Source: Phycisphaerales bacterium (GTDB lineage: Bacteria; Planctomycetota; Phycisphaerae; SM23-33; FEN-1343). From it: a DNA stretch of 64,000 bases. The notes below the pieces were generated by a model that was given only the letters and a program-made list of their open reading frames with translations, made no database searches and was not told the origin of the DNA. The position numbers and the translations under genes are program-made. Position 1 is the first letter of the stretch; the number at the start of each line of letters is the position of its first letter. The stretch covers positions 2,682-66,681 of the forward strand of contig PMYD01000025.1 in the NCBI GenBank assembly GCA_003171335.1, read 5' to 3'. This document shows positions 8,996-25,667 of the stretch, piece by piece.

Positions 8996-9165
8996 AACGG
9001 CCGCACGCGGACGGGCAAGCCGCGTGCATAGGCTTGGGTGCCGTGGCTTGCGGAGCGCAGCGCAGCAACCACGACGACGGCGATGCAGAGCACGCGTGGT
9101 TGCTTCGGTCGCCGCAGCGACCTGTCCGCCATACTTCGGCGAATCCTGCGGAGAATGCCATCTGG

Positions 9166-9425
9166 GGATTCAACCCCGGAGGGGTTGATACAGCTCCAGC
9201 CCCGGGTTGGCGAAGACCGCGAAGCGGGCGCGCCTACCCGGGGAACAGGAGGCACCCAATTGCGTTCAACCCCGGCAGGGGTTGAATAGCTCCGTCTCGA
9301 ACCATTCTGCCCGCCGTCGTGCTATTCAACCCCTGCCGGGGTAGGAACCTGCGTCGGCGTCACCCAGGGTAGCCTCGCCGTGCTCGGCAACCCTGGGCTG
9401 GAGCTGTATCAACCCCTGCCGGGGT
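9166..9425. repeat. cluster of four palindromic hairpins of the TCAACCCCGGCAGGGGTTGA family within a larger ~260 bp inverted arrangement
   Basis: Hairpins near 9166, 9262, 9322 (imperfect) and 9399. The flanks GATACAGCTCCAGCCCCGGGTT (near 9185) and AACCCTGGGCTGGAGCTGTATC (near 9385) are inverted copies of each other. Intergenic between fba and the LysE-type gene. Confidence 0.7.
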
Positions 9426-9435
9426 TGAAAAAGAA

Positions 9436-10098
9436 CTAGCGGAAAAGATCGAAGCACTGCGACGTCGCCCCGTACAGGAAGCTGCCCGCGATCACGAAGA
9501 GCGCCAGCCCGCACAGGGCCAGGATGACGCGCTGGGATTTGGCGCCCAGCAGGGTGGACCCTTTAAACGTGGCGGTTGTCAGCAGCTCCAGCCAGACGGC
9601 ATCGCACATCCAGTGGATGATGCCGAAGGCGGCAAAGGCCATCAGGCCCAGGCTGCTGGCCTTGATAGCCAGGGCCAGGCCCACCGAGGCCCACCACAAG
9701 AGAAACAGCGGGTTCATGGCCGTCAGCACCAGGCCCACGAGGATGGGGCTGCGGGCGATCTTGGAGGCCGAGGAGCCGGAGCTCTTGGGCTGGGGATTTT
9801 TGAGCATGCCGACGGCCAGCCACAGCATCATGAGGCCGCCGACCAGGCCGATGGCGATTTTCACCGCCGGGATGTTCAGCACCTGCCCCACGCCCAGGAG
9901 GATGAGCGCCATCAGCGGGAATTCCACGATGCCGTGGCCGACGGCCATGCTCAGCCCCGCGTGCCGGCTGCGCGTGCCGGCGGCCAGGGCGGCGGCGGTC
10001 ATCGCGCCGGGCGAGATTACGCCCGAGAGCGACAGCACCACGGCCTGCAGCACCACCAGGGCGGTTTGGTTCCACGGCGTCGGTACGGTTGCAAGCAT
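9436..10098 (-). CDS. LysE/RhtB-type amino-acid exporter family membrane protein
   Basis: 220-aa polytopic membrane protein from a verified ATG (complement of 10096-10098). N-terminal ..VISPGAMT.. resembles the LysE-family SPGP motif, and size and TM pattern fit. Confidence 0.5.
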   Translation of the reverse strand: MLATVPTPWNQTALVVLQAVVLSLSGVISPGAMTAAALAAGTRSRHAGLSMAVGHGIVEFPLMALILLGVGQVLNIPAVKIAIGLVGGLMMLWLAVGMLKNPQPKSSGSSASKIARSPILVGLVLTAMNPLFLLWWASVGLALAIKASSLGLMAFAAFGIIHWMCDAVWLELLTTATFKGSTLLGAKSQRVILALCGLALFVIAGSFLYGATSQCFDLFR

Positions 10099-10216
10099 GT
10101 CGCCAGTTTAGAAGGAGCCGAGCAAATTCCAAATGCGAAATTCAAAAGGAACCGGACAGTGAGGCGAAGCCATGCGGCGCGAGGTGGCAAGCGTTGTAAG
10201 GTGGCATGCGTTGTAA

Positions 10217-10358
10217 GGTGGCATGCCCTCACGGCTGGGGCGAAGCCCCGGACGGGTGGGCATGGGTTTTCCATTTGCGCGAGGTCTTCCTTCTGCGCGG
10301 CAGACATGCCCACCCGCCTTGGCCGCCCAGGCGGCCTGCGGCGTGAGGGCATGCCACC
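10217..10358. repeat. nested-palindrome element, copy 2 of 3
   Basis: GGTGGCATGCCCTCACG..GACGGGTGGGCATG..CATGCCCACCCGCC..CGTGAGGGCATGCCACC. Preceded by a direct repeat GCGTTGTAAGGTGGCATGC x2. Sits between hydF stop and the LysE-type gene start. Confidence 0.85.
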
Positions 10359-10364
10359 TAATAC

Positions 10365-11597
10365 TTAACGGCCCTTCAATCGGTGGTACATCTCCAGCGC
10401 CGCCGGGAAGGGGCCGAGGGCCCGCTCGAGGATGCCCAGCGTATAGGCGATGGTCATGCCGTAATTGGCAACCGGCACGCCCGCCGCACGGCAGCGGAGC
10501 AGGCGCGAGAGCATCTCGCGGCGGTTCCACATGCAGGCACCGCAGTGGATGACGAGTTTGTAGGTCGAGAGGTCATCGGGGAAGTCGTGGCCCTGCACGT
10601 GCGTGAAGTCCATGGTGCCGCCGACATATTGCGTGAGCCAGCGCGGGATCTTCACGCGGCCGATGTCATCACCGATGGGGTGGTGGCTGCACGCCTCGGC
10701 CACCAGGATGCGGTCGCCGGGGCGGAGCTGCTCGATGGCCAGCGCACCCTCGACGAACACGTTCAAATCGCCCTTGGCGCGGGCGAAGACGATGGAGAAC
10801 GAGGTCAGCGGAATATCCTTGGGCGTGTCGCCGGCCACCTTGAGAAAACCCTGGGAATCGGTCACGACCAGGGCGGGGGGGCGCTTGAGCCGGTCCAGGG
10901 CATCGCGCAGCTCGCGCTCCTTGACGACCAGGCAGTACGCATCCACATCCAGCACATCGCGGATGGCCTGCACCTGCGGCAGGATGAGCCGGCCCTTGGG
11001 GGCCTCCAGGTCGATGGGCACGACCAGCATGACCAGCTCGCCCGCGCGCACGAGGTCGCCGATGATGGCCGGGGCGTTGATGAAATCCTCCGGCGCGGCC
11101 TTGATGAGCGCCTCGCGCAGGTCCAGGATGCCCTCGCCCTTGGAGGCGACGGTGTGGACGATGGGAATCTTCCTGCCCTTGAGGTCCTTCAGGAGCGCCG
11201 CATCGGGCTTTCCCAGGTCGGACTTGTTGAACACGACGATGGCCGGGGTCTTTCGCTCCGCCAGCTCGGCCAGGATGGCCTGTTCAAACGGACCCCACTC
11301 GCCGGCGGCCGTGACGAGGATGCCGACATCCGTGCGGTCGAACACCTGCCGCGTGCGCTTGACCCGCAGCTCGCCCAGCACGCCCACATCGTCGATGCCG
11401 GCGGTGTCGATGAACAGCACCGGGCCGATGGGCAGCAGCTCCATGGGCTTTTCCACCGGGTCGGTGGTCGTGCCGGCGATCTCCGAGACGATCGACACCG
11501 CCTGGCGGGTCATGGCGTTCAAGAGCGAGCTCTTGCCGACATTCCGCCGGCCGAAGATGCCGATGTGCAGACGAAAACCTTTGGGAGTACTTCTCAT
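10365..11597 (-). CDS. hydF: [FeFe]-hydrogenase maturation GTPase HydF
   Basis: N-terminal GTPase P-loop GIFGRRNVGKSSLLNA. C-terminal HydF cluster-binding motifs ..EACSHHPIGDD.. and ..IHCGACMWNRRE.. (CxH...HCxxC). The track's start 11603 is TTG; the ATG two codons in (complement of 11595-11597, MRSTPKGF...) is more likely. Confidence 0.85.
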   Translation of the reverse strand: MRSTPKGFRLHIGIFGRRNVGKSSLLNAMTRQAVSIVSEIAGTTTDPVEKPMELLPIGPVLFIDTAGIDDVGVLGELRVKRTRQVFDRTDVGILVTAAGEWGPFEQAILAELAERKTPAIVVFNKSDLGKPDAALLKDLKGRKIPIVHTVASKGEGILDLREALIKAAPEDFINAPAIIGDLVRAGELVMLVVPIDLEAPKGRLILPQVQAIRDVLDVDAYCLVVKERELRDALDRLKRPPALVVTDSQGFLKVAGDTPKDIPLTSFSIVFARAKGDLNVFVEGALAIEQLRPGDRILVAEACSHHPIGDDIGRVKIPRWLTQYVGGTMDFTHVQGHDFPDDLSTYKLVIHCGACMWNRREMLSRLLRCRAAGVPVANYGMTIAYTLGILERALGPFPAALEMYHRLKGR

Positions 11598-11603
11598 GTT
11601 CAA

Positions 11604-11784
11604 TCCTGCGGCGGGGCTCTTTTAACCCCTCTCCCTCAGGGAGAGGATGGCCCGAAGGGCCAGGTGAGGGTGTCGCCAATGGGTGAACTTCCCTTTTGCG
11701 ATCACCCTCACCCGGCTTCGCTGAAGCTACGCCGGGCAAGCCGGGCCTGACGGCCCACCTCCCCCATCCAGGGGGAGGGGTTTT
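11604..11784. repeat. three GC-rich hairpins in the hydF / aspA-like intergenic spacer
   Basis: CCTCTCCCT-CA-GGGAGAGG; GGTGAGGGTG..(32 nt)..CACCCTCACC; CCTCCCCCATCCAGGGGGAGGGG. Read directly. Confidence 0.6.
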
Positions 11785-13176
11785 TCAAGACCCCAGCCGG
11801 GTTACGTTTTCCGGACTGATCAGCTTATCAAATTCCTCGCCGGTCAAGATGCCTTGCTCGATGACCACCTCGCGCACGCTGCGGCCGCTGCGGCCGGCAT
11901 CGAGGGCGATTTGCTGGGCGGCGGGGTAGCCGATTCTCTCGACCAGGGCGGTTACAGCCGCCGTGGCGGAGCGGACCTGGGCGCTGCAGCGGTCGCGGTC
12001 GGCCTCGATGCCCTCAACGCACAGCCGGCGGAAGATGGAGCAGGCGGCGGTGAGGAGCTGGAGGCTTTCGAGCAGGCAGTCGGCGATGAGGGGCACGAAG
12101 GCGTTGAGTTCCAGCGAGCCCAGACTGGCGGCCTGGGCGATGGCCTGGTCGTTGGCCATGACGCGGATGGCCGCCTGCGTGACCGCCTCGGGGATGACCG
12201 GGTTGACCTTGCCGGGCATGATGGATGAACCCGCCTGGCGCGCGGGCAGGCGAATCTCCCCGAGGCCGGCCTGCGGACCGGAAGAGAGCCACCGCAGATC
12301 CGTGGAAACTTTTACGAGGCTGGTCGCCAGGGCTTTCAAAATTCCGCTGACCTCGACGAACGCATCCACATTCTGCGTGGCCTCGACGAGATTCTCCGCC
12401 CGCGCCAGACCCAGGCCGGTGATATCGCGCAGATGCTCCACGGCGCGGAAGATGAACTGCCGCGGGGCGCCCAGCCCTGTGCCGATGGCTGTACCGCCCA
12501 GGTTCACCACGCGCAGCCGCTCTTCGCACTTGTACACCCGCCAGCGGTCGCGGCTGAAGGCCTCGGCATAGGCGGACATCTCGCGGCCCAGCGTGGTCAA
12601 GACGGCATCCTGCATCTGCGTGCGGCCGACTTTGACCACATCGGCCAGGGCCTTCTCCTGAACCTGGAAGGCCTCGAGCAGGGCGGTGATCTCGCGTTCC
12701 AGGTCGCGCAGCATGCGGATGGCCGCGACTTTGAGCGCTGTGGGGTACGTGTCGTTGGTGGACTGGTGCAGGTTCAGGTCATCCAGCGGGCTGATGGCCT
12801 CGTAATCGCCGAGCTTGCGGCCGAGAATCTGCAGCGCGCGATTGGCCAGCACCTCGTTCACGTTCATATTGGTCGATGTGCCGGCCCCGCCCTGGAGGGC
12901 ATCGACGCGGATATGCTCATCCAGCAAGCCCTCGGCCATCTCCGCGCACGCCTGCTCAATGGCGATGCTCTTGGCATCGTCCCACTTGCCCAGCTCGTGA
13001 TTCGTCCGCGCGCACGCCAGCTTCACCGCGCCAAAGGCCCGGATGAGCTGAGGATGTATGGGTCTTCCGCTGAGAGGAAAATTTTCCAGGGCGCGTTCGG
13101 TATAAATGCCGTGGAGTGCGCCGGCGGGAACCTCGCGCTCGCCGAGGAGGTCTTTTTCTGTGCGGAAGTCAGCCAC
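11785..13176 (-). CDS. aspartate ammonia-lyase-like class II lyase (aspartase/fumarase superfamily), sitting between hydG and hydF
   Basis: Motifs TEKDLLGEREVPA, QGGAGTSTNMNVNEVLAN, HQSTNDTYPTA, GRTQMQDAVLTTLG, and signature GSSIMPGKVNPVIPE (the aspartase-like KVNPV(I/V)PE rather than fumarase KVNPTQCE). The track start 13212 is TTG inside a heptamer repeat; the GTG at complement 13174-13176 gives a canonical N-terminal length. Confidence 0.8.
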   Translation of the reverse strand: MADFRTEKDLLGEREVPAGALHGIYTERALENFPLSGRPIHPQLIRAFGAVKLACARTNHELGKWDDAKSIAIEQACAEMAEGLLDEHIRVDALQGGAGTSTNMNVNEVLANRALQILGRKLGDYEAISPLDDLNLHQSTNDTYPTALKVAAIRMLRDLEREITALLEAFQVQEKALADVVKVGRTQMQDAVLTTLGREMSAYAEAFSRDRWRVYKCEERLRVVNLGGTAIGTGLGAPRQFIFRAVEHLRDITGLGLARAENLVEATQNVDAFVEVSGILKALATSLVKVSTDLRWLSSGPQAGLGEIRLPARQAGSSIMPGKVNPVIPEAVTQAAIRVMANDQAIAQAASLGSLELNAFVPLIADCLLESLQLLTAACSIFRRLCVEGIEADRDRCSAQVRSATAAVTALVERIGYPAAQQIALDAGRSGRSVREVVIEQGILTGEEFDKLISPENVTRLGS

Positions 13177-13191
13177 AGTCGGGGACTCCAA

Positions 13192-13500
13192 ATTCCAAAT
13201 TCCAAATCCCAAATCCCAAACAACGGTTCGACCGCCCTGAGCGGCTCACCGCCGAAGGGGCTCCAAATCCCAAATTCCAAAGGGGAGCAAACATCCCGGT
13301 GCCACGGCTGCGTTGTTTGCAGCCGTGCGCTGTGTGAGTCGGTAAACGAGAGGTTCCTTGGCTTCCGCAGGACCTCTGGCAGCGCTGCCAGGTCTTGGCG
13401 CACGGCTGCAGAAGGCGCAGCCGTGGCACCAGGGACGTTTTGTTCCCATTTGGAATTTGGTGCTTGGGATTTGTTTGGGATTTGGAATTTGGGATTTGGG
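13192..13500. repeat. composite palindromic element: (CCAAATT/CCAAATC)n heptamer arms flanking an inverted pair of GTGCCACGGCTG..CAGCCGTGCGCT hairpins
   Basis: Left arm 13192-13225 and 13262-13280. Hairpins 13298-13332 and 13398-13430. Right arm 13442-13500 (GGAATTTGG..GGGATTTGGGATTTC). Lies between hydG stop and the aspA-like start. Confidence 0.8.
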
Positions 13501-13506
13501 ATTTCT

Positions 13507-14913
13507 TCACAGGTAGAGGTCCCTTTCCTGCGTCTCCCGAATCCGGCGCATTCTCTCTACAAGCTGGGTTTTGCCGGGATCCTCGGGCATCTTCTCAAGC
13601 TCGGCCGCGACCAAACGCTCGCCGGCCGTCCGCGTGGCGGGGGAGGCGTAATCGACGAGATACTCCTCCAGCGTGGTCAGCGCGTTGGGCGTGCACAGCC
13701 GCTGGATGAAGCCGGGGATGGCGAACTCCATGAAATGCTCGCCCGTGCGGCCCAGGCGGTAGCAGGAGGTGCAGAAGCTGGGGATGTAGCCATCATCCAG
13801 CAGCTCGCGCATCACGCGGTCGAGCGAGCGGACATCGCCCAGCTCGAACTGCTCGCGCTCCATCACCTGGGCATCGCCCGCCTCGGTGTAGCCGCCGATC
13901 TCGATGCGGCTGCCGGCGTCGATCTGGGAGACCCCAAAGGCCATCACCTCGCGCCGCAGCGCCGCCGGCTCGCGGGCGGTGAGGATCAGCCCGGTATAGG
14001 GGACGGATAACCGCAGGATGGCGATCAGCCGCTTGAACTGCTCATCATCGACGGCGTAGCGGCTGTCCAGGTCCGTGCCGGCGGCGGGGCGCAGGCGCGG
14101 GAAGCTGATCGTGTGCGGGCCGACGCCGTGGCGGTGCTGGAGGTACAGGGCGTGGCTGACCAGGCCGAGCACCTCGAAGCGCCAGTCGGCCAGGCCGAAA
14201 AGCGCGCCGATGCCCACATCGTCGCAGCCGGCATCCATGGCGCGGCTCAAGGCATCCAGCCGCCAGAGATAGTCGCCCTTGCGCGTGCCCGCCGGGTGCC
14301 ACTGGGCGTAGGCGCCGTGGTGGTAGGTCTCCATGAAGATCTGGTACGTGCCGATGCCGGCGGCTTTGACGAGGCGGTAGCCCTCGACATCCAGAGGGGC
14401 GGCGTTGATGTTCACGCGGCGGATCTCGCCGTGGCCGAGGCGCACCTCGTACACCTGCTTCACGCAGTCGGCGATGTAGGCGGCGTCGTACCGCGGGTGC
14501 TCGCCAAAGACCAGGATCGTCCGCTTGTGGCCCACGCGGACCATCGCCTCGACCTGCCGGCGGAGCTCCTCGGGACTCAGCGTGCGGCGGACCGAGGCGC
14601 GATTGGAGCAGCGGAAGCCGCAGTAGCCGCAGTCGTTGACGCAGTCGTTGCCGATGTAGAGCGGGGCAAAGAGCACGATGCGATTGCCGTACACATCGCG
14701 CTTGAGTTGCCTGGCGGCGGCGTAGATCTCCTCGATCAACTCCCGCTGCTCCGCGCGGAGCAGCACCGCTGTCTCCTCGACGGCCAGCGGCTGCTTCTCC
14801 AGGCTCTTGGCGATGATCTCGCGGACTTGGTCTGCCGCGGGGGCCTTGCCGGCCAACAGGCCCGACAGGTGGGCGTCGTCGATGAAATCGCTCGCCCGCT
14901 CATTCATTTTCAT
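13507..14913 (-). CDS. hydG: [FeFe]-hydrogenase maturase HydG (radical SAM tyrosine lyase)
   Basis: Radical SAM motif CVNDCGYCGF (CxxxCxxC). C-terminal HydG-specific CTSC-x22-C (..SFCTSCYRLGRTGEHFMEFAIPGFIQRLCTPNA..). ThiH-like overall. Start ATG at the complement of 14911-14913 (MKMNERASDF), or the next ATG at 14905-14907. Confidence 0.85.
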   Translation of the reverse strand: MKMNERASDFIDDAHLSGLLAGKAPAADQVREIIAKSLEKQPLAVEETAVLLRAEQRELIEEIYAAARQLKRDVYGNRIVLFAPLYIGNDCVNDCGYCGFRCSNRASVRRTLSPEELRRQVEAMVRVGHKRTILVFGEHPRYDAAYIADCVKQVYEVRLGHGEIRRVNINAAPLDVEGYRLVKAAGIGTYQIFMETYHHGAYAQWHPAGTRKGDYLWRLDALSRAMDAGCDDVGIGALFGLADWRFEVLGLVSHALYLQHRHGVGPHTISFPRLRPAAGTDLDSRYAVDDEQFKRLIAILRLSVPYTGLILTAREPAALRREVMAFGVSQIDAGSRIEIGGYTEAGDAQVMEREQFELGDVRSLDRVMRELLDDGYIPSFCTSCYRLGRTGEHFMEFAIPGFIQRLCTPNALTTLEEYLVDYASPATRTAGERLVAAELEKMPEDPGKTQLVERMRRIRETQERDLYL

Positions 14914-14976
14914 GCTTGCCAGAACACCCATACTACACCTTGCCTTGCTACACATTCGAAAAGGATCAAGTTCTTA

Positions 14977-15098
14977 GGTGCCACGGCTGTCCGCAGCCGT
15001 GCGCTGTGCGGACAACAGGGCAACCGGTTCGCTGGCTTCCAGCGGACCTTTCCGCGTTCTGGTCATTCCAGCGCACGGCTGCGGACAGCCGTGGCACC
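14977..15098. repeat. inverted pair of GGTGCCACGGCTGTCCGCAGCCGTGCGCT hairpins separated by ~65 bp
   Basis: First hairpin 14977-15006, second (inverted copy) 15070-15098. The stop of the REC-HK gene (15063) falls between them, so the second hairpin encodes that protein's last ~11 residues. A near-identical pair occurs at 42736..42860. Confidence 0.85.
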
Positions 15099-16238
15099 GG
15101 GGACTAGACCGGGGACCAGACTCTTGCCCAACGTCACCGTAAACGTGGTGCCCACGTCCGCCTGGCTGGTGGCGGCCACATCGCCGTCGTACAGGGCGGC
15201 GAGTTTCTTCACGATGGACAGGCCCAGGCCGCTGCCGACGATCCGCCGCGTCTTGTCGTTGCGGATGCGGCCGAATTCGGTGAACAGCTTGCCGATTTCC
15301 TCGGCCGACATGCCGATACCCGTGTCGGCCACGGCCAAGGTGACGGCCGCCGCCGACTGGCCGATCTGGACATCCACGCGGCCGTCGGGGCGGTTGTACT
15401 TGATCGCGTTGGAGATCAGGTTGTTCAGGATGATCTCCAGCTCCTGCCGGTCGGCCGTCATCACGGCCCCAGAGCCGGCCAGAGACACCGTCACGCCGGC
15501 CTCGCTGGCTTGGCCGGCGAAACTCTCGACGACCTCCGCCGCCACGGCCGCCACATCCAGCTCGACCAGCTCGCGTTTCATCTGGCCCGACTCGATCCGA
15601 GTCAGGTCCAGCAGGTCCTGGATGAGCTTGCGCATGGCGGTCAAACGGAACAGCGAGCGATCGAGCATCTGGTCGTACGTGGCTTGGTCGCTACCCGCCT
15701 GGCGGTGCAGAACGATCCGCAGGTAGCCCTCGATGGCGCCGATGGGGGCCTTGAGCTCGTGGGCCAGCACGGAAAGAAACTGGAAGCGCACCTGACGCTT
15801 CTCCTGGGCCAGCCGGCGGGCCTCGCGCTGGAGCAGCAGGTGCTTGGCCGCCTTGCGCACCGCGCCTTTGAGTTCATCGGGCGTGAAGGGTTTGGCAAGA
15901 AAGTCGTACGCGCCGCGCTTCGTGGCGGCCACGGCCGTGTCGAGCGAGGCGTAGGCGGTGATCATCACCGTCAGCACGTCCTGCTCGCCATCGGCCAGCT
16001 TACCCAGCACGTCCAAACCGCTCATGCCCGGCAGCTTGTGGTCCAGCAGCAGGATGTCAGGGGCCTGGGACGCGATCGACTCGAGCGCCTGCTCGCCGGT
16101 GGCCGCCTCGGCGACTTCAAAGTGCACGTCCCCGTTGATTTCGCGCAAGCGGACGGTGAAATCGCGCAGCGCCCGCTTAACGCCTTGGCGCATGCCAGGC
16201 TCATCGTCGACCACGAGGACTTGAAGGGGGCTGTTCAT
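15063..16238 (-). CDS. hybrid two-component protein: N-terminal receiver (REC) domain fused to HisKA/HATPase histidine kinase
   Basis: Verified ATG (complement of 16236-16238): MNSPLQVLVVDDEPGMRQGVKRAL... REC features: DD pair, ..LLLDHKLPGMSG.., K in ..FLAKPF... HisKA H-box ..LAHELKAPIGAIEGY... HATPase ..DTGIGMS.., ..GSGLGLSIVKK... Confidence 0.75.
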   Translation of the reverse strand: MNSPLQVLVVDDEPGMRQGVKRALRDFTVRLREINGDVHFEVAEAATGEQALESIASQAPDILLLDHKLPGMSGLDVLGKLADGEQDVLTVMITAYASLDTAVAATKRGAYDFLAKPFTPDELKGAVRKAAKHLLLQREARRLAQEKRQVRFQFLSVLAHELKAPIGAIEGYLRIVLHRQAGSDQATYDQMLDRSLFRLTAMRKLIQDLLDLTRIESGQMKRELVELDVAAVAAEVVESFAGQASEAGVTVSLAGSGAVMTADRQELEIILNNLISNAIKYNRPDGRVDVQIGQSAAAVTLAVADTGIGMSAEEIGKLFTEFGRIRNDKTRRIVGSGLGLSIVKKLAALYDGDVAATSQADVGTTFTVTLGKSLVPGLVPGATAVRSRALE

Positions 16239-16260
16239 AGTGAGTGCCTCTGTTCTTTTC

Positions 16261-16397
16261 GATTTCAAATTTCAAATTTCAACTTTGGTGGCACAGGCTT
16301 TCCAGCCTGTGGATTCTGGCCGTCACAGGCTGGAAAGCCTGTGCCACCACTCCCGCTGTTTCCGGCAGTTAAATTTGAAATTTGAAATTTGAAATCC
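16261..16397. repeat. palindromic element: (TTTCAAA)n heptamer arms flanking two inverted GGTGGCACAGGCT-TTCC-AGCCTGTGG hairpins
   Basis: Left arm GATTTCAAATTTCAAATTTCAACTTTGG (16261-16286). Hairpins 16287-16312 and 16324-16350. Right arm AGTTAAATTTGAAATTTGAAATTTGAAATCC (16367-16397). Lies between the HydS-HK stop and the REC-HK start. Confidence 0.85.
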
Positions 16398-16398
16398 C

Positions 16399-18405
16399 TC
16401 ATTCTTTTCCTTCCCTGCGTGGCAGCGTAATGGCGAAAGTCGTTCCCGTCGGCCCGGCGGCCTTGTCGGCGTTGGAGGTGACCTGGATGTCGCCGCGATG
16501 CATCTTCACCACGCCATACGCCACCGCCAGCCCCAGGCCGGTGCCCACGCCGATCTGCTTGGTCGTGAAGAACGGCTCGAAGATCTTCGTCAGGTTTTCC
16601 TTGGGAATACCCACGCCGGTATCGCTGACGGCCAGCGTGACTTTATCCTCATCGCCGCCGGCGCGGAGGGTCAACGTGCCGCCGGCCTCCATGGCTGCCA
16701 CGGCGTTGGTCAGCAGGTTGGTGAGCACCTGGATCATCTGGTCGGCGTCGAGGTCCGCCTCATCGTCATCTTCGCTCAGGTCCACGTGCGTTTCCAGGCG
16801 AATGGAGTCTGGAATATTCACCGAGCGCAGCGCCCGCTGAATAAGCTGGCGCAGGCTGACCGGCTGGAGCAGCACCTTGTTCTGCCGGGCAAAGTGCAGC
16901 AGACCGGAGACGATGCGCTTGCAGCGGTCGGCCTGCTCGGTGATCACGCTCATGTCCTGGCGCAGTTGCTCATTGCCGGCGTGCTCTTCCAGCAGCAGGT
17001 GCGCGTACATCAGCACGATGCCCAGCGGGTTATTCACCTCATGCGCGATGCCCGCGGCGAGCTGGCCCATGCTGGCCAGCTTCTCCGACTGCATCAGCGC
17101 CTCCTGGGCGCTGGCAAGTTCCTTATGCGACTCGGCCAACTGCGTGACGGTGGTGTGGAGCTGGTCGATCGTGTACGGCAGGCACATCTCCGTCTCGGCC
17201 AGGCCCTTGAAGATGGCCACGGCGTGCTCGCGGCAGGTGTCGTAGCCGCAGGCGCCGCAATTCAGCTCATCGGCGGCGGTCTGCTTGCCGATGCGCGCCA
17301 GGATCTGCCGGACCTCCTCTTCAAACGGCACGCTGATATGCTGGTCCTGCGCGGTGTAAGTGCGAGACAGGTCCAGGTCGGCCAGGCTCTCCATGTCGCG
17401 CTGCCAGCGGGCCTGGTCGAAATGGCGCAGCCGCTGGCGGACGTACTCGGCCACGCGCGCCCGGCGGAAGAAGACCGGGGTCTCGGGGGAGATGCCCGGG
17501 CCAGTGATGCAGCCCTTGCAGGCTAAGAGCTCCAGCAGCCTCGCGTCCAGGTCGCCGGTCTCGAATTCCTTGATCGCATCCACAAAATCCGTGCGGCCGT
17601 CGGCGGCGACGACGTGGCCTTCGAGCAGATCCTCGTGGATGTCGGCCGCCTGCAGCAGGCCGCGGCTGATGGAAAACAGCGCCCCAAGGCCCGCGTGCGG
17701 CGCATCAAAATCATCCTGCGCCGCCGGCTTAGGGACGATGCCCGTCTGCTGAAACATCGCCCGCAGCTCGGGAAATGTCAGCGCGGCATCCACCTCGCCG
17801 GTGAGGTGTGGGTTATCCACCTCGCCCTTTTTGGCCACGCAGGGTCCGATGAACACCACGCGCAGCTTGTCATGCCGGCCGCGGCGCAGCGCGCGGGCGA
17901 TGGCCACCATGGGCGAGACGATCGGCGCCAGGGCGTCCACCAGGTCGGGGTGATATTTTTCCACGAACGCCACGACCGCCGGGCAGCTTGTGGCGATGTA
18001 CCGCCGGCCGGCCGAGGCTTCCAGCAGCTTGCGGTAGCGGTCGGCCACCAGGTCGGCCCCGAAGCCCACCTCATGCACGGCCGCGAACCCCAGCTCGCGA
18101 ATCATGCCCACCAACTGCCGCCAGGAGCACTCGGTGAACTCCGCGGGAAAGCTGGGCGCCAGCACGGCGACCACGGGCTCACCCCCCGCCAGCAGCGTGC
18201 GGACGTGAACGGTGGAGTCCAGGACGACCTTGGCCTTCTGGCTGCACACGCGGACGCAGTTGCCGCAGCCGATGCAGCGTTCCGCCAGCACCTCGGCCTG
18301 GCCCTTGCCGATGCGGATGGCCTTGGCCGGGCACTCCCGCACGCAGGTGTAGCACACCCGGCAGCGCTCTTTGGCGGTCTGGACGAGATGGGTGGCGGAG
18401 GTCAT
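16399..18405 (-). CDS. sensory [FeFe]-hydrogenase-like protein (HydS-type H-domain) fused to a histidine kinase
   Basis: Verified ATG (complement of 18403-18405): MTSATHLVQTAKE... Two ferredoxin [4Fe-4S] motifs: CRVCYTCVRECP and CIGCGNCVRVC. Degenerate H-cluster motifs: ATSCPAV (L1 with a single Cys), GPCVAKKGE (L2, Gly in place of Met), ELLACKGCITGPG (L3, Leu in place of Met). Extra C-terminal NCGACGYDTCREHAVAIFKGLAETEMC (Cx2Cx4Cx16C). Then HisKA H-box ..GIAHEVNNPLG.. and HATPase ..DTGVGIP.., ..GTGLGLAVAYG... Confidence 0.75.
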   Translation of the reverse strand: MTSATHLVQTAKERCRVCYTCVRECPAKAIRIGKGQAEVLAERCIGCGNCVRVCSQKAKVVLDSTVHVRTLLAGGEPVVAVLAPSFPAEFTECSWRQLVGMIRELGFAAVHEVGFGADLVADRYRKLLEASAGRRYIATSCPAVVAFVEKYHPDLVDALAPIVSPMVAIARALRRGRHDKLRVVFIGPCVAKKGEVDNPHLTGEVDAALTFPELRAMFQQTGIVPKPAAQDDFDAPHAGLGALFSISRGLLQAADIHEDLLEGHVVAADGRTDFVDAIKEFETGDLDARLLELLACKGCITGPGISPETPVFFRRARVAEYVRQRLRHFDQARWQRDMESLADLDLSRTYTAQDQHISVPFEEEVRQILARIGKQTAADELNCGACGYDTCREHAVAIFKGLAETEMCLPYTIDQLHTTVTQLAESHKELASAQEALMQSEKLASMGQLAAGIAHEVNNPLGIVLMYAHLLLEEHAGNEQLRQDMSVITEQADRCKRIVSGLLHFARQNKVLLQPVSLRQLIQRALRSVNIPDSIRLETHVDLSEDDDEADLDADQMIQVLTNLLTNAVAAMEAGGTLTLRAGGDEDKVTLAVSDTGVGIPKENLTKIFEPFFTTKQIGVGTGLGLAVAYGVVKMHRGDIQVTSNADKAAGPTGTTFAITLPRREGKE

Positions 18406-18429
18406 GACAACCTCGGGCGTATTGCTGAA

Positions 18430-18551
18430 GGAATTGCGAATTGCAAATTGCAAATTGCAAATTGGGGAACTCCGAACCTCCCGCCGCTGTGGGCAGTGAG
18501 TGGCGATCCGGTGTCCCTGAATTGGCAATTTGCAATTCGCAATTGGCAATC
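18430..18551. repeat. palindromic element: (AATTGCA)n left arm and inverted (TGCAATT/TGGCAATT) right arm flanking an ~55 bp GC-rich core
   Basis: GGAATTGCGAATTGCAAATTGCAAATTGCAAATTGG ... GAATTGGCAATTTGCAATTCGCAATTGGCAATC. Sits immediately upstream of the HydS-HK start and downstream of the CheY gene stop. Confidence 0.8.
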
Positions 18552-18555
18552 TCTT

Positions 18556-18972
18556 CTAGCTGTCGTTTGGCGCGCAGGCCTTGTCGCCCAGCAGCCGGGC
18601 GACCTCCGCGCGGATCTGCTCAGCGCGGACGGGTTTATCGAGGATCAGGTCGGCCTTGACCCAGCTCTTGGCGTCTTCATCGTTGGGCACGAACGACAGG
18701 CCCGTGGCGGCGGCGACGGAGGTCAGCAGGATGACCGGCACATCCCCGTGCACGCGCTTGAGGTGGTAGGCCAGCACGAAGCCGCTGTCCATCTGCTCCA
18801 TCATCAGGTCCAGGATGGCCAGGTCGGGCTTTTGGCCTAAGAGCAGCTCCTCGCCCTGGCGCTGGCTGTGGCCGGCCTGCACCTCGTAGCCGTCGGCCTG
18901 GAGCACCAAGGTGAGTTGGGAAACGATGTCTTCGTCATCATCCACAATCAAGATTCTGGGCTTGCTGTTCAT
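18556..18972 (-). CDS. single-domain CheY-like response regulator (receiver only)
   Basis: Verified ATG (complement of 18970-18972): MNSKPRILIVDDDEDIV.. REC hallmarks ..DLAILDLMM.. and ..LLTSV... No output domain. Confidence 0.75.
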   Translation of the reverse strand: MNSKPRILIVDDDEDIVSQLTLVLQADGYEVQAGHSQRQGEELLLGQKPDLAILDLMMEQMDSGFVLAYHLKRVHGDVPVILLTSVAAATGLSFVPNDEDAKSWVKADLILDKPVRAEQIRAEVARLLGDKACAPNDS

Positions 18973-18992
18973 TTTCAAATGTCTCTCAGTTC

Positions 18993-19115
18993 GATTGCAA
19001 ATTGCCAATTGCAAATTGCCAATTAAAAACTCTTCCGCAGGAAGTGCCGCTTGATCGGCGCGGCGCCTCGCCGCAGCTCTTCAATTTGCAATTTGCAATT
19101 GGCAATTGGCAATCC
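18993..19115. repeat. palindromic element with (AATTGCA/AATTGCC) heptamer arms, related to 18430..18551
   Basis: GATTGCAAATTGCCAATTGCAAATTGCCAATT ... CAATTTGCAATTTGCAATTGGCAATTGGCAATCC. Fills the hydA-stop / CheY-start spacer. Confidence 0.8.
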
Positions 19116-20837
19116 TTACAGGGGAACTTCCCGCTTATGGTAGTGCGTGTGCAACAGGTGGTGGCTCTTCTCGCCCAGGGGCTTGCCCAGGAACTCGTCG
19201 TACAGCCGCGTGATCCAGGGGTTGGCGTGACTGACGCGGCGCGGCTCATCGCGGTCGATCTTGTACAGGGCCTGCATGCGCGCCCGCACCGACTCGAGGT
19301 CGGCGCCGATGGGCTGGCCGCCGCCGTTGATGCAGCCGCCGGGGCAGGTCATGATCTCGATGAACTGGAGGTCTTTGCGCCCGGCCCGCAACTGGTCCAA
19401 GAGCTGGCGGGCGTTGCCCAGGCCGCTGGCGACGGCGGCGCCGACGTCCAGCGTGCCGATGGTGGTGCGAAGCTCCTTGATGCCCTTCATGCCGCGCAGC
19501 GGCTGGATCTTCAAATCGCCCATCTCCTGGCCGGTGATCAGGTAGTACGCCGTGCGGACGGCCGCCTCCATGACGCCGCCGGAGGCGCCGAAAATCTTGC
19601 CGGCGGTAGTGCGCTCGCCGAAGGGCGTATCGGCCGCCTCGGCCTCCAGGGCCGCCAGGTTCACGCCGAACATCCGCAGCAACTGGCCCAGCTCGCGGGT
19701 GGTCAGCACGTAGTCCACATCGGGGACGTGGTTGGGCTGCATCTCCGGCCGCGCGCACTCGAACTTCTTGGCCGTGCAGGGCATGATCGACACGCTCACG
19801 ATATTGCCCGGCTCGATGTTCTCGCGCTGGGCGAAGAAGCTCTTGATGATCGCCCCCATCATCTGCTGGGGGCTCTTGCACGTGGAGAGGTTGGGGATGA
19901 ACTCCGGGTAGAACTGCTCCACGAATTTGATCCAGCCGGGCGAGCAACTGGTCATCATGGGCAGCACGCCGCCGGTGGTGACGCGATGCACCAGCTCGCT
20001 GGCCTCTTCCATGATGGTCAGATCGGCGGCAAACGAGGTATCAAAAACGCGGTCAAAGCCCACGCGGCGCAGGGCGGCCACCATCTTGCCGTCCACGTCC
20101 GTGCCGGGCTTTAAGCCGACTTCCTCGGCCAGGCTCACGGAGACCGCCGGGGCATGCTGGGCGATGACCAGCTTGGTCGGGTCGGCCAGGGCCGCCACCA
20201 CGGCGTCGAGGCTGGAGCGCTCGGACAGCGCGCCCGTCGGGCAGACCAGGATGCACTGCCCGCAGTTGATGCAACTGGAGAGGTTGAGCCCGGCGTTAAA
20301 CGCCGTGCCCACGAACGCCCGGCTGCCGCGGGCGATGAAATCCACGGCCGAGACGGTCTGGTATTCCTCGCACATGCGGACGCACCGGCCGCACAGGATG
20401 CACTTGCTCGGGTCGCGCAGGATGGAGGGGCTGGAGACATCCAGCTCACGTTTGCTCTTGGCGCCGCGATACAGCCGCTGGCGCACGCCCAGGTCCATCG
20501 CCAGGTGTTGCAGTTCGCACTTGCCGCCGCGCGGGCAGTACAGGCAGTCGTCGGGGTGGTTGCTCAGGAGCAGTTCCACGATGGTCCGCCGGGCCTCCAG
20601 CACGCGCGGGGTGCGGGTGCGGATCTTCAGCCCTTCGCTCACCGGGCAGGAGCAGGCGGTGACCAGGTTGCCCGTGCCTTCCACCTCGACCACGCACAGC
20701 CGGCAGGCGCCGCTGGGCGCCAGCCCGTCCATGTGGCACAGCGTGGGCACGTGAATGCCCTCGCGCCGCAGCGCCAGCAGAATCGTCTCGCCCGGCTTGG
20801 CCGCAATCTCGCGGCCGTCCGCTAGAAAAGTAGTCAT
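19116..20837 (-). CDS. hydA: [FeFe]-hydrogenase catalytic subunit HydA (M3-type, CpI/bifurcating-like), with an unusual L1 motif
   Basis: Verified ATG (complement of 20835-20837, GAGGAT SD). N-terminal 2Fe-2S ferredoxin-like domain. His-ligated cluster motif HPDDCLYCPRGGKC. Two 4Fe-4S motifs CILCGRCVRMC and CINCGQCILVCP. H-cluster motifs MMTSCSPGW (L1, normally TSCCPxW), MPCTAKKFE (L2), EIMTCPGGCINGGGQP (L3). Confidence 0.9.
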   Translation of the reverse strand: MTTFLADGREIAAKPGETILLALRREGIHVPTLCHMDGLAPSGACRLCVVEVEGTGNLVTACSCPVSEGLKIRTRTPRVLEARRTIVELLLSNHPDDCLYCPRGGKCELQHLAMDLGVRQRLYRGAKSKRELDVSSPSILRDPSKCILCGRCVRMCEEYQTVSAVDFIARGSRAFVGTAFNAGLNLSSCINCGQCILVCPTGALSERSSLDAVVAALADPTKLVIAQHAPAVSVSLAEEVGLKPGTDVDGKMVAALRRVGFDRVFDTSFAADLTIMEEASELVHRVTTGGVLPMMTSCSPGWIKFVEQFYPEFIPNLSTCKSPQQMMGAIIKSFFAQRENIEPGNIVSVSIMPCTAKKFECARPEMQPNHVPDVDYVLTTRELGQLLRMFGVNLAALEAEAADTPFGERTTAGKIFGASGGVMEAAVRTAYYLITGQEMGDLKIQPLRGMKGIKELRTTIGTLDVGAAVASGLGNARQLLDQLRAGRKDLQFIEIMTCPGGCINGGGQPIGADLESVRARMQALYKIDRDEPRRVSHANPWITRLYDEFLGKPLGEKSHHLLHTHYHKREVPL

Positions 20838-20852
20838 GCCATATCCTCGTTA

Positions 20853-20975
20853 CCGTGGCACGGGCGTCTCGCCCGTGAGTCGCACGGGCATCTTGCCCGT
20901 GATCCGGCCGTTTCTTCTCAGTTTCCACGGGCGAGACGCCCGTGGCACTCATGGGCGGGACGCCCATGCTACTCT
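20853..20975. repeat. cluster of four CACGGGCG-NNNN-GCCCGTG family hairpins in the hydB-hydA intergenic spacer
   Basis: CACGGGCGTCTCGCCCGTG, CACGGGCATCTTGCCCGTG, CACGGGCGAGACGCCCGTGGCAC, CATGGGCGGGACGCCCATG, all read directly. A second cluster of the same family is at 38676..38795. Confidence 0.85.
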
Positions 20976-23900
20976 TAATCCGGTTGCGTGAACTCCAGGT
21001 CGCAGCGCAGGCAGCGGCGGGCCTCCTTGACGGCATCCGCCTCGCTGATACACAGCTCGACCTCGGCGAAGGTGCACTTGCGCTGGCCCACGGGCAGCTC
21101 GGGGCACTTGACGCGCTCGACGATTGTCTCCGACTCCTCATCGTCGCCGCCGCCCGCCACGGGCGCCACGTACACCCCCGGCACGATGGCCTTGGGCAGC
21201 ACGCGCATGGCCTTGCCGCGGACGAACCGGTCGATCATGGCCGCCGCTTGCTTGCCGGTGCCCACCGCCGCAATGACGGTGGCCGGCCCGGTCACGGCGT
21301 CGCCGCCGGCGAAGATGCCCGTGCGACTGGTCTGGAAGCTCTCGCCGTTGGTCGCCACCGAGCCCCAGCGCGTAAGCGTCAATTGTTCGAGACCCTCGGT
21401 CTCGGGCTCCTCGCTGATGGCCACGACCAGCGTGTCCAGCTCCAGGTCGAATTCCGAGCCGGCGATCGGCACGGGCCGTTGCCTTCCGGAGGCATCGCGC
21501 TCGCCCAGCTTGTTGCGCTGCAGGCGCAGGCCGGTGAGCTTGCCATCTTTCGTGTGCACGGCCAGCGGGGCGACCAGCTCTTCAAGCTTGACGCCCTCTT
21601 GCAGCCCGGCCTCGACCTCTTCGTGGTAAGCCGGCATCTCCTCGCGCGTGCGGCGGTACAGCACCGTGACGCTGGTGACGCCTTTTTGCCGCAGGGCCAC
21701 GCGGGCGGCATCCATGGCGGAGTTGCCGCCGCCGATCACGCCCACCCGCCCGTGCGCCAGCTCCTGCCCGTGCAGGTTATGGGCCTTGAGGAAGGTCATG
21801 CTCGGGATGACGCCGCGGGCATCCTCGCCGGCTAGATCAAGCTTCTTGGACTTATGAGCGCCCGTGGCCACATAGACCGCGCTAAAACCCTGGGCCAGCA
21901 GGTCGTCCAGGCTGAAATCGCGGCCCAGTGCCGTGTTGTAGCGGATCTCGACGTTGGGATTGGTCAGCGCATCGATCTCCCGCCGCAACAGATCGCGCGG
22001 CAGCCGGTACGCCGGGATGGCGCCCACCAGCATGCCGCCGGGCTTGGCCTCGCGCTCAAAGACGGTCACGCGATGGCCCATCAGCGACAGGCAGTTGGCG
22101 GCCGTGAGGCCCGATGGCCCCGCGCCGATGACGGCGATCTTCGCCGCATTGGCCGCCGCCGGCGCCACCGCGGGCGTACCGACGCCGGGGCTGACGTGGT
22201 CCACGACGAACCGCTTGAGCGTACGCACGGCCACCGACTCACCGCCGGTTGAGCCGGCGCGGCAGGCGTGCTCGCACGGGTGATGGCACACGCGGGCGCA
22301 GGCCGAGGGGAACGGGTTACTCTGCCGGATCACCCGGTAGGCCTCCTCGTATTCGCCGCGGCCGATGTGGGCCACGTACCGCCACACTTCCGTGCCGGCG
22401 GGGCAGGCGTTCTGGCAGGGCGCGCCCACCAGGCTCTTGCACGCCCCGGCGGGGCAGCGGCGCTCGAAGACATGCGCCTCGTATTCCGCGCGGAACCATT
22501 TCAGCGTGCTCAGCACCGGGTTGGCGGCGGTCTGACCTAAGCCGCACAGGCTGGTGGCCTTGATCATCTCGCCCAGCCGCTCCAGGTGCATGATGCCCTG
22601 CACCCGCAGCAGGCTGTCGAAGGGGCTCTCCTGGCGCGGGCTGCGCGTCAACGCCTGGAGGATTTCCAGCATGCGCTTGGTGCCTTCGCGGCAGGGAATG
22701 CACTTGCCGCAGCTCTCCGACTGGATGAACTCCATGAAGAACTTGGCGAAATCGACCATGCAGGTCGCCTGATCAACCACCACCAGGCCCCCCGAACCCA
22801 TGATGGTCCCAAACTTCTTGAGCGCCTCGTAATCGGTCGGAATATCCAGCTCTTTTTCCGGCACGCAGCCGCCGGAGGGCCCGCCGATCTGCACGGCTTT
22901 GCACGCCTTGTTGTTGGGAATGCCGCCGCCGATATCAAACACCACCTGCCGCAGCGTGGTGCCCATGGGCACCTCCACCAGGCCGGTGCGGCGGACCATG
23001 CCCGAGAGGGCGAACACCTTGGTGCCCTTGGAGCTGGCCGTGCCCATGGCGGCGTACCACTGCGGGCCAATGTCAAGAATAAGGGGCAGATTCGCCAGCG
23101 TCTCCACGTTGTTGATGACCGTGGGCTTGCCGAACAGGCCCTTGACCGCCGGGTAGGGCGGCCGCGGCCGCGGCATGCCGCGCCGGCCTTCGATGCTGTG
23201 GATGAGCGCCGTTTCCTCGCCGCACACGAACGCGCCGGCGCCCTGCTTGATGACGATCTCCAGGGAGAAGCCGCTGTCCAGCACGTTCTCGCCGATCAGC
23301 CGGTACTGCCGCGCCTGGGCCATCGCCTGCTGAAGGCGGCGGATGGCCACGGGGTACTCGGCGCGGATGTAGATGTACGCCTTGGACGCGCCGATGGCGT
23401 AGGCCGCGATGAGCATGCCTTCCAGCAGCCGGTGCGGATCGCTCTCGCCCACGGCCCGGTCCATGAACGCGCCGGGGTCGCCCTCGTCGGCGTTGCAGAT
23501 GAGATATTTCTGGTTCGCCTGGGAGGCGCGGGCGAATTTCCACTTCTTGCCAGTGGGGAACCCGCCGCCGCCGCGGCCGCGCAGGCCGCTGGCTTCCACC
23601 TGGTCGCAGACTTCCTCGGGCGTCATCTTGCCCAGCACCTTGGCCACGGCCGAGTAGCCGCCCCAGGCGATGTATTCATCGATGCTTCCCGGGTCCAACA
23701 GGCCGCTGGTGGCCAGCACCACGCGCCGCTGGCGGATGAGGAACGGGTGCTCGTCGAGATAGCGCACCTGGTCCCAGGGCTTTAGCAAGAGCCCTTCCTG
23801 CCGGAACTGGCCCAGCGCCGCGCCCTCGGCGACCTTGGCATCGACCAGCACCGCCTTGAGCACGGCCTCGACCTTGTCGGCCGTGGCATTTCCAAAGCAG

Positions 23901-24259
23901 ATGCGCGTGCGGCCGGGCATCTGCACATCGAGCAGGGGCTCTTCCGAGCACAGGCCGATGCAGCCGACCTCGATCACCTCGGCATCGAGATTGCCCTTGG
24001 CGATGTACTCGCGCACGGCGGCGAGCGTTTTGCCCGCCCCAGCGCCCAGGCCGCACGTGCCGGTGCCGATGAAGATCACCGGCTTGGCCACATCCTGGCG
24101 GCGCAGGGCCGACAGCCGCCCGGCCAGCACATCGGCCCCCGCGCTCTTGGCGGCGGCCAGCGGGCCGGCGGGAATCCAGTCCAAGAGCTCGGGCGAGACC
24201 GGCCGAGCGCCCAGCCAGCAACGATCAAAAGCCACGGCAGCGGTATTAGCATCCGGCAT
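20975..24259 (-). CDS. hydB: hydrogenase NADH-dehydrogenase-like subunit HydB: NuoF (51 kDa, FMN/NAD-binding) fused to a C-terminal GltD-like FAD/NAD(P) oxidoreductase domain
   Basis: Verified ATG (complement of 24257-24259). NuoF hallmarks ..GGGGFPTGKKW.., ..LICNADEGDPGAF... Cys-rich Fe-S motifs. Then a GltD-like region: ..CQNACPAG.., ..KIAVIGAGPSGLTAA.., ..GRVGVIGGGNSAMD... Confidence 0.85.
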   Translation of the reverse strand: MPDANTAAVAFDRCWLGARPVSPELLDWIPAGPLAAAKSAGADVLAGRLSALRRQDVAKPVIFIGTGTCGLGAGAGKTLAAVREYIAKGNLDAEVIEVGCIGLCSEEPLLDVQMPGRTRICFGNATADKVEAVLKAVLVDAKVAEGAALGQFRQEGLLLKPWDQVRYLDEHPFLIRQRRVVLATSGLLDPGSIDEYIAWGGYSAVAKVLGKMTPEEVCDQVEASGLRGRGGGGFPTGKKWKFARASQANQKYLICNADEGDPGAFMDRAVGESDPHRLLEGMLIAAYAIGASKAYIYIRAEYPVAIRRLQQAMAQARQYRLIGENVLDSGFSLEIVIKQGAGAFVCGEETALIHSIEGRRGMPRPRPPYPAVKGLFGKPTVINNVETLANLPLILDIGPQWYAAMGTASSKGTKVFALSGMVRRTGLVEVPMGTTLRQVVFDIGGGIPNNKACKAVQIGGPSGGCVPEKELDIPTDYEALKKFGTIMGSGGLVVVDQATCMVDFAKFFMEFIQSESCGKCIPCREGTKRMLEILQALTRSPRQESPFDSLLRVQGIMHLERLGEMIKATSLCGLGQTAANPVLSTLKWFRAEYEAHVFERRCPAGACKSLVGAPCQNACPAGTEVWRYVAHIGRGEYEEAYRVIRQSNPFPSACARVCHHPCEHACRAGSTGGESVAVRTLKRFVVDHVSPGVGTPAVAPAAANAAKIAVIGAGPSGLTAANCLSLMGHRVTVFEREAKPGGMLVGAIPAYRLPRDLLRREIDALTNPNVEIRYNTALGRDFSLDDLLAQGFSAVYVATGAHKSKKLDLAGEDARGVIPSMTFLKAHNLHGQELAHGRVGVIGGGNSAMDAARVALRQKGVTSVTVLYRRTREEMPAYHEEVEAGLQEGVKLEELVAPLAVHTKDGKLTGLRLQRNKLGERDASGRQRPVPIAGSEFDLELDTLVVAISEEPETEGLEQLTLTRWGSVATNGESFQTSRTGIFAGGDAVTGPATVIAAVGTGKQAAAMIDRFVRGKAMRVLPKAIVPGVYVAPVAGGGDDEESETIVERVKCPELPVGQRKCTFAEVELCISEADAVKEARRCLRCDLEFTQPD

Positions 24260-24737: not shown

Positions 24738-24760
24738 CCTTCCGCTGACTTTGGTACCTG

Positions 24761-24815: not shown

Positions 24816-24840
24816 CGGGCACGGCTGGGCCGGTTGGTGG

Positions 24841-25660: not shown

Positions 25661-25667
25661 GGGGGCG

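Follow-up and report, generated by a model that had tools for sequence, protein, structure and literature searches.

Organization of the locus

The DNA analysed here, hereafter the window, is a 64,000-nucleotide stretch of contig PMYD01000025.1 from a Phycisphaerales bacterium (assembly GCA_003171335.1), and the subject of this report is an aspA-like gene that lies in it between hydG and hydF, two maturase genes of [FeFe]-hydrogenase. All three genes are read from the minus strand. hydG (13507-14931; 474 amino acids (aa) as called, in an open reading frame (ORF) that reaches 14955) encodes the radical SAM tyrosine lyase responsible for the Fe(CO)2(CN) synthon. It is followed by an intergenic region (13177-13506), by the aspA-like gene for an aspartate ammonia-lyase (11785-13176; 463 aa, protein P0001, in an ORF that reaches 13212), by a second intergenic region (11598-11784) and by hydF (10365-11597; 410 aa as called), which encodes the GTPase scaffold of the [2Fe] subcluster. 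The three are the last genes, at the 3' end, of a longer hydrogenase locus with a single gene orientation, and lie downstream of hydC, hydB and hydA and of a sensory hydrogenase-kinase module. Raw ORF lists were noisy because the G+C content of the window is roughly 65%, and the gene map was cleaned by filtering ORFs on third-position G+C. A first-pass annotation of the window had described the three genes as a co-oriented maturase operon without hydE, and the genes were recovered in the same orientation and essentially at the coordinates that it gave.

The two maturases were identified with family models and by their motifs. HydG scored 489.5 bits against TIGR03955 (cutoff 312) with Pfam domains Radical_SAM and BATS, and carries the N-terminal CX3CX2C motif CVNDCGYC as well as the C-terminal motif of the auxiliary cluster, CTSC-x22-C. 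HydF scored 562 bits against TIGR03918 (cutoff 326), contains the Pfam domains MMR_HSR1, HydF_dimer and HydF_tetramer (the latter two PF18128 and PF18133), and has both the P-loop GRRNVGKS and the cluster motif CSH...HCGAC. The identities assigned in the first-pass annotation thus hold for both proteins, with both models above cutoff and the motifs that it quoted found in the sequences.

Identity of the lyase

The protein encoded between the maturases is an aspartase-type class II lyase, as had been proposed; the one subfamily model that it matches above cutoff, the ranking of structures and the GSSIMPGKVNPVIPE signature that it carries agree on this. It is made up of a Lyase_1 core (PF00206, 277 bits) and a C-terminal FumaraseC_C domain (PF10415, 62.9 bits), and its 463 aa fall within the ~460–480 aa usual for the superfamily. 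Among the subfamily models, it scored 627.5 bits against the aspartate ammonia-lyase model NF008909 (cutoff 510), 499.7 bits against the aspA equivalog TIGR00839 (cutoff 681.2) and 432.8 bits against the fumC_II equivalog (cutoff 664.75). The top matches in the PDB by phmmer were all aspartases, namely 8rj1 (409 bits), Bacillus AspB 1j3u (405 bits) and E. coli AspA 1jsw (379 bits), with lower scores for fumarases (337–355 bits).

Motifs were compared by aligning the lyase with AspA and FumC from E. coli MG1655. The SS-loop, starting from G316, reads SSIMPGKVNPVIPE with the aspartase-type continuation KVNPVIPE and is near-invariant in the clade of hyd-linked lyases described below. Further motifs are QGGAGTSTNMN at position 96, HQSTNDTYPT (containing QSTND) at 138 and GRTQMQDAV at 184, the GRTQ being the same in E. 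coli AspA. The housekeeping aspartases of E. coli (AspA, 1JSW) and Bacillus sp. YM55-1 (AspB, 1J3U) have the fold and length of the window lyase in common with it, as well as the SS-loop GSSIMPGKVNP, GGAGTS, QSTND and GRTQ, but are only about 45% identical to it, the window lyase falling in the separate hyd-linked clade. Class II fumarase FumC (E. coli, PDB 1FUO) belongs to the same superfamily and likewise has the C-terminal FumaraseC_C domain, but differs at each of these sites, with QTGSGTQSNMN (GSGTQ), QSSND, GRTH and KVNPTQCE in place of the aspartase residues. The roles of individual residues, including that of the catalytic serine in the SS-loop, are presumed here from the AspB and AspA structures.

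The catalytic motifs were near-invariant over 62 members of the hyd-linked clade. Residue changes specific to the clade were sought as a sign of neofunctionalisation, and a single column sharply divided the clade from other aspartases, namely N269, which corresponds to D273 of E. coli AspA. In addition, the DAVP that follows the GRTQ motif is often DAVL in the clade. No sign of altered chemistry was found in this comparison, and neofunctionalisation was dropped as a candidate explanation. Based on its motifs, the gene most likely encodes a catalytically intact aspartate ammonia-lyase.

Synteny and phylogeny of the lyase

The first-pass annotation had suggested a gene-neighbourhood survey and a phylogeny of the lyase, and both were carried out. 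Scanning the window lyase against one genome per GTDB species gave 80 loci with lyases 73% to 43% identical to it; the genome of the window is itself outside the surveyed collection, the best match being the one at 73%. The 10-kb flanks of each locus were searched by tblastn with HydG, HydF and HydA of the window and with HydE from a relative, and linkage was counted only for loci with at least 3 kb of flank per side. A lyase gene adjoining hydF or hydG was observed in 27 of 28 homologues at 60% identity or more and in 17 of 18 at 50–60%, while below 50% identity this number was reduced to 3 of 15. Taken together, 44 of the 46 homologues that are at least 50% identical are maturase-linked. The synteny is accordingly far beyond chance and is not peculiar to the genome of the window.

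Within these 46 loci, hydF was found in 42, and in 35 of the 42 it lies no more than 200 bp from the lyase gene (median gap 46 bp). A stricter count, of those loci at or above 50% identity whose flanks measure 8 kb or more on both sides, gave 32 maturase-linked cases out of 34. As hydA was missing from 17 of these 32 loci, it is the maturases and not the structural gene that the lyase tracks. Linked loci were observed in Planctomycetota, Hydrogenedentota, Kiritimatiellia, Myxococcota, Armatimonadota, Bacteroidota, Calditrichota, Acidobacteriota, Desulfobacterota, Bacillota, Spirochaetota, Omnitrophota and others. Psychrobacter, Rhizobium, Mesorhizobium, Corynebacterium and Arachnia are among the sources of the unlinked loci below 50% identity, and in E. 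coli aspA adjoins dcuA rather than hyd genes. A few loci depart from the common arrangement. In a member of Kiritimatiellia (locus L012) the hydG-aspA pair is present and hydF was not found in the 8.7 kb downstream, and in a member of Prolixibacteraceae (L022) and a Treponema (L080) lyases of the clade type have no hyd gene within 10 kb.

A neighbour-joining tree was calculated from 80 sequences picked by similarity to the window lyase and rooted on E. coli FumC. All hyd-linked lyases formed one clade, with E. coli AspA outside it, in 99 of 100 bootstrap replicates. The window lyase consequently does not group with housekeeping AspA; such a grouping, together with a synteny unique to this genome, was what the first-pass annotation had named as speaking against a role in maturation. 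Across many phyla, members of the clade of the lyase accompany the maturase genes, and hydF in particular. The hyd-linked aspartases are a well-supported clade distinct from housekeeping AspA, and this is a modest addition of the present analysis; such a separation was not found in the sections consulted of the biochemical study of the system (Pagnier et al. 2024, J Biol Chem 300:107760; PMC11736057).

The three genes were also compared with those of a sister species (locus L083), in which the lyase is 90% identical to that of the window. Ratios of nonsynonymous to synonymous substitution rates (dN/dS) were 0.145 for hydG, 0.118 for aspA and 0.128 for hydF. All three genes are thus under purifying selection (dN/dS 0.12–0.15).

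Location of hydE

No HydE is encoded within the 64 kb of the window, as had been noted from the sequence; this was confirmed by inspection of radical SAM ORFs and by family models. The sole other ORF with a CxxxCxxC radical SAM motif, at 52320-53759, was considered as a HydE substitute and rejected, as it is a B12-binding protein of the lipid type (TIGR04072-like, 300.7 bits) and gave no match to HydE. The first-pass annotation had left two options, that hydE is encoded elsewhere or that it has been replaced. The former proved correct and the latter is not needed, as hydE lies on the same contig, on the minus strand at window-equivalent positions ~73,432-74,523, which is 9.4 kb past the right end of the window and roughly 58.5 kb from hydG.

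The gene was reached through a locus (L086) that is 100% identical to window positions 52883-64000 and carries the contig onward. At its end this locus contains the C-terminal part of a radical SAM gene of 363 aa, and the 70 residues covered match the HydE model only (TIGR03956, E = 5e-13). Using the 70-aa fragment as a query returned short fragments only, and an exact 42-nt pattern of hydE DNA had no match in the metagenomes of the Joint Genome Institute. A chimeric query led to the 90% cluster of the protein and thereby to its full sequence (P0265). It equals protein P0145 minus two N-terminal residues, and P0145 scored 306 bits against TIGR03956 (cutoff 254.6). It carries the CX3CX2C motif CQRRCAYC and a C-terminal CX7CX2C motif, CIAETAQQCIQC. 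The longest contig carrying P0265 measures 87,310 bp, and the same figure was obtained for the HydG, AspA, HydF and HydA proteins.

hydE is found after genes for an Rrf2 regulator, a PALP enzyme, a Cys/Met-metabolism enzyme dependent on pyridoxal phosphate and mnmA, in that order, and is followed by genes for a 303-aa protein weakly similar to the PP-loop family, ThiF and an 811-aa protein without a Pfam match. The genome of the window has two additional genes between the Cys/Met-metabolism gene and mnmA, one for a DDE transposase and one for a 200-aa protein of unknown function. The order is otherwise the same in the sister species, which lacks these two genes and in which the PP-loop and ThiF parts are fused. 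In both, hydE is thus inside a conserved run of sulfur-related genes, with stop/start overlaps from hydE onward (hydE at L090:9831-10922 and, in the sister species, at L091:10001-11089). The proteins of the hyd locus are 82–92% identical between the two species (HydE 84%).

In relatives with HydG 65–71% identical to that of the window, hydE is situated directly upstream of hydG, after the gene for the response-regulator/histidine kinase (L002, L004-L008, L010, L013 and others). Those among the related Planctomycetota (e.g. L002 and L006) have in common with the window an upstream module of hydB, hydA, the sensory hydrogenase-kinase and response regulators as well as the hydG-aspA-hydF order, but differ in tight gene spacing and in having hydE between the kinase gene and hydG. 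In the window this slot is a gap of ~130 nt, and hydE is likewise missing from it in the sister species (L083). In this lineage hydE has therefore left the slot that it normally occupies upstream of hydG for a position ~58.5 kb away, and as the new gene order is common to the genome of the window and the sister species, the relocation predates the split of the two. As a modest addition to what is known of these clusters, this means that within one lineage hydE can become uncoupled from the cluster while the remaining maturase genes show no decay.

Intergenic repeats and co-transcription

The genes of the maturase part are spaced unusually far apart. hydG and aspA are separated by 330 nt and aspA and hydF by 187 nt, whereas in relatives these genes overlap or have gaps of 3–80 bp. 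The hydG-aspA gap consists of a nested inverted repeat of ~315 nt, with arms of heptamer repeats and a core palindrome GTGCCACGGCTG, that folds as a single hairpin (RNA fold −187 kcal/mol, z = −12.6). The aspA-hydF gap contains nested inverted repeats forming several GC-rich hairpins (−106.7 kcal/mol, z = −5.9). Scanning positions 9000-26000 for sigma-70 promoters and terminators gave results no better than those for shuffled sequences, with no sense-strand terminator between hydG and hydF, and an Rfam scan of the whole window at gathering thresholds gave no known RNA family. The TGGCAC/GTGCCAC palindromes were also considered as sigma-54 promoters and dropped by eye, their spacing to any TTGC being unfit. 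Co-transcription of hydG, aspA and hydF, suggested in the first-pass annotation, is plausible by analogy with relatives but uncertain for this genome.

Almost all intergenic regions in the hyd locus contain long nested inverted repeats (13177-13506, 14977-15098, 16239-16398, 18406-18555, 18973-19115, 20838-20974 and 25140-25667), which also occur at 9174-9430 and 42739-42848. Many of their arms are tandem heptamers of the AAATTCC, AAATTGC or AAATTTC types around GC-rich GTGCCAC...GTGGCAC palindromes, and a 107-nt tandem repeat is found upstream of hydC. Similar palindromes are present in the sister species. These could be elements resembling repetitive extragenic palindromes (REP) or miniature inverted-repeat transposable elements, or they could serve as signals for RNA processing or stability. 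The window also contains a gene for an IS200-like Y1 transposase (40237-40689, minus strand). The IS200-like Y1 family includes the REP-associated tyrosine transposases, so that a connection between the enzyme and the numerous palindromic repeats is conceivable.

Upstream hydrogenase genes and other genes of the window

Directly upstream of hydG, and like all genes of the hydrogenase locus on the minus strand, is a gene for a hybrid response-regulator/histidine kinase (15063-16238; Pfam Response_reg, HisKA, HATPase_c). Next to it are a fusion of a sensory [FeFe]-hydrogenase-like domain with a histidine kinase (16399-18405; Fe_hyd_lg_C, FeS, HisKA, HATPase_c) and a single-domain response regulator (18556-18972; Response_reg). 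This sensory module (15063-18972) thus separates hydA from the maturase genes and is conserved in a number of relatives (L002, L006, L007, L010, L020, L025 and L032). The TSCxP and L3 motifs were not found by regular-expression search in the sensory hydrogenase-like protein.

The catalytic subunit HydA (19116-20837; 573 aa; Fer2_4, NADH-G_4Fe-4S_3, Fer4, Fe_hyd_lg_C, Fe_hyd_SSU) has the L1 motif TSCSPGW at residues 296-302 as opposed to the textbook TSCCP, while L2 (MPCTAKKFE) and L3 (EIMTCPGGC) are intact. The same L1 variant is shared throughout the subgroup of HydA proteins 60–92% identical to that of the window, and it has been mentioned for hydrogenases of Melainabacteria (PMC3787301). 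The hydB-like gene (20975-24259) encodes a protein of 1094 aa (Complex1_51K, NADH_4Fe-4S, Fer4_20, Pyr_redox_2) in which a NuoF-type flavoprotein module for FMN and NADH is joined to a GltD-like pyridine-nucleotide oxidoreductase module made up of Fer4_20 and Pyr_redox_2; HydB of the relative L002 is shorter, at 662 aa. The fusion suggests a second nucleotide site on the hydrogenase complex that is NADPH-linked or glutamate-synthase-like. Upstream of it is a hydC-like gene for a thioredoxin-like [2Fe-2S] subunit (24246-25139; 2Fe-2S_thioredx).

Two further groups of genes were observed on the plus strand outside the hydrogenase locus. The B12-binding radical SAM gene lies beside a type III polyketide synthase gene (52320-55075); its best family is TIGR04072, of the lipid/ladderane type, at 300.7 bits and under the cutoff of 360, and the pair may belong to an unusual lipid pathway. 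At 60806-62629, genes for a nucleotidyltransferase (NTP_transf_5), a PqqD-like protein and a transglutaminase-like protein stand in a row, a set that resembles the maturation genes of clusters for lasso peptides or other ribosomally synthesized and post-translationally modified peptides.

Role of the lyase

Two published studies bear on the function of an aspartase in a hyd cluster. The genome paper of Pelobacter carbinolicus (Aklujkar et al. 2012; PMC3543383) reported aspA between hydG and hydF in the hndD2 cluster and favoured a metabolic reading of it. Pagnier et al. found an ammonia-lyase gene within 20 ORFs of 79% of authentic hydF genes, with aspA in particular close to hydF and strongly associated with it (PMC11736057). 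They further showed, in a defined maturation system with T-protein, H-protein and SHMT, that 15N of aspartate enters the dithiomethylamine bridge in vitro when E. coli AspA is present (PMC11736057). The window locus agrees with the published aspA-containing clusters in the hydG-aspA-hydF order with aspA beside hydF and in the role proposed for the lyase in supplying the bridgehead nitrogen, and there too hydE may be found elsewhere in the genome (PMC11736057; Pelobacter carbinolicus hndD2). It differs from them in coming from a metagenome-assembled genome of an uncultured planctomycete-like organism, in having intergenic regions expanded by long hairpin repeats, and in the location of hydE in an mnmA/ThiF neighbourhood ~58 kb from hydG.

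The three genes are best explained as the maturation section of an [FeFe]-hydrogenase locus, in an uncultured and probably planctomycete (Phycisphaerae-like) anaerobe, in which the lyase probably supplies aspartate-derived ammonium for the azadithiolate bridge. In such a scheme the enzyme would split aspartate into fumarate and ammonium beside the maturation machinery. The ammonium would enter via the T- and H-proteins of glycine cleavage, as aminomethyl-lipoyl-H-protein, and would end up as the bridgehead NH of the dithiomethylamine (azadithiolate) ligand assembled on HydF. The third maturase gene, hydE, is not missing, as it lies elsewhere on the same contig. The present analysis establishes the gene identities, the aspartase-type active-site motifs, the clade membership, the conserved synteny, the purifying selection and the location of hydE; that this particular enzyme does the same in vivo as in the published assay and that the three genes are expressed together is what we infer. 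The speculation in the first-pass annotation that an ammonia-lyase might provide nitrogen for the azadithiolate matches the published biochemistry (PMC11736057), and the survey and the tree fit with it. The idea is thus not new, being known as synteny since 2012 and as biochemistry since 2024.

Several points weigh against nitrogen supply by the lyase. That a hyd-linked AspA is required for maturation in vivo is, for any organism, still hypothetical. The AspA used in the published assay was that of E. coli, which is outside the hyd-linked clade, and free NH4+ was equally effective in vitro (PMC11736057). The glycine-cleavage genes that the model requires were not found in the window. Because the lyase is under the strict TIGR00839 cutoff (499.7 against 681 bits), we infer its substrate specificity from motifs only. 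Co-transcription is uncertain, as the gaps of 330 and 187 nt contain very stable hairpins, as opposed to the tight spacing in relatives. The boundaries of the clade, drawn by neighbour-joining from 80 query-similar sequences, could also shift with wider sampling.

An alternative is that the lyase is metabolic and serves aspartate catabolism, with fumarate as electron acceptor or carbon source and NH4+ as nitrogen source, coupled to the disposal of hydrogen and electrons, and that it is found in the hyd cluster only for co-regulation. This is what was proposed for Pelobacter carbinolicus (PMC3543383), and it is also noted that fumarate could serve anaerobic respiration (PMC11736057). The lyase keeps all ordinary aspartase motifs, with one column alone separating its clade sharply from housekeeping AspA, which speaks for this reading. 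The lyase gene however follows hydF, at 200 bp or less in 35 of 42 loci, and 17 of the 32 maturase-linked loci have no structural hydrogenase gene within 8–10 kb. Moreover, neither a dicarboxylate transporter nor a fumarate reductase is encoded beside the lyase in the window, and a distinct clade co-inherited with the maturases across many phyla fits better with a role in maturation. We regard the metabolic alternative as unlikely. That the lyase is simply the ordinary housekeeping AspA or FumC of the genome, placed between hydG and hydF by chance or by a lineage-specific accident, is less credible still and can practically be set aside. It scores highly on generic AspA and FumC models, but maturase linkage was seen for 44 of the 46 homologues with 50% identity or more, in phyla ranging from Planctomycetota to Bacillota and Spirochaetota, the non-linked AspA of aerobes and of E. 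coli are outside the clade, and the motifs are of the aspartase and not the fumarase type.

The distinctness of the clade may on the other hand be taken to mean that its members have a changed substrate or partner, be it another amino acid, the amination direction, or docking on HydF or T-protein to channel ammonia, and act as a specialised fourth maturase. Monophyly apart from housekeeping AspA, the score below the aspA equivalog cutoff, the location almost always immediately beside hydF, the clade-specific N269 (D273 in E. coli AspA) and the frequent change of DAVP to DAVL after GRTQ are in keeping with this. All known substrate-binding and catalytic motifs of aspartases are nevertheless conserved, the protein has neither an extra domain nor a change in length (463 aa), and generic E. 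coli AspA suffices in vitro (PMC11736057), so that a changed function appears improbable. It is conceivable, though we consider it doubtful, that the hyd-linked aspartases, rather than being just AspA genes that happen to lie near hydF, make up a distinct, anciently co-inherited subfamily that would act as a dedicated fourth accessory of maturation, for instance by delivering ammonia locally to the step involving HydF, T-protein and H-protein. Within the sample examined, the clade is monophyletic, spans more than 10 phyla and tracks the maturases rather than the hydrogenase.

With regard to supply of the bridgehead nitrogen by the lyase, the linkage of aspA to hyd genes is the genomic clue behind the current answer to the origin of this nitrogen, namely ammonium that is released by ammonia-lyases and passes through the H-protein of glycine cleavage. 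The locus described here introduces no new principle. It is one more example of this arrangement, from a poorly studied phylum, and the comparative support that it adds is a monophyletic clade of aspartases bound up with hydF and subject to purifying selection.

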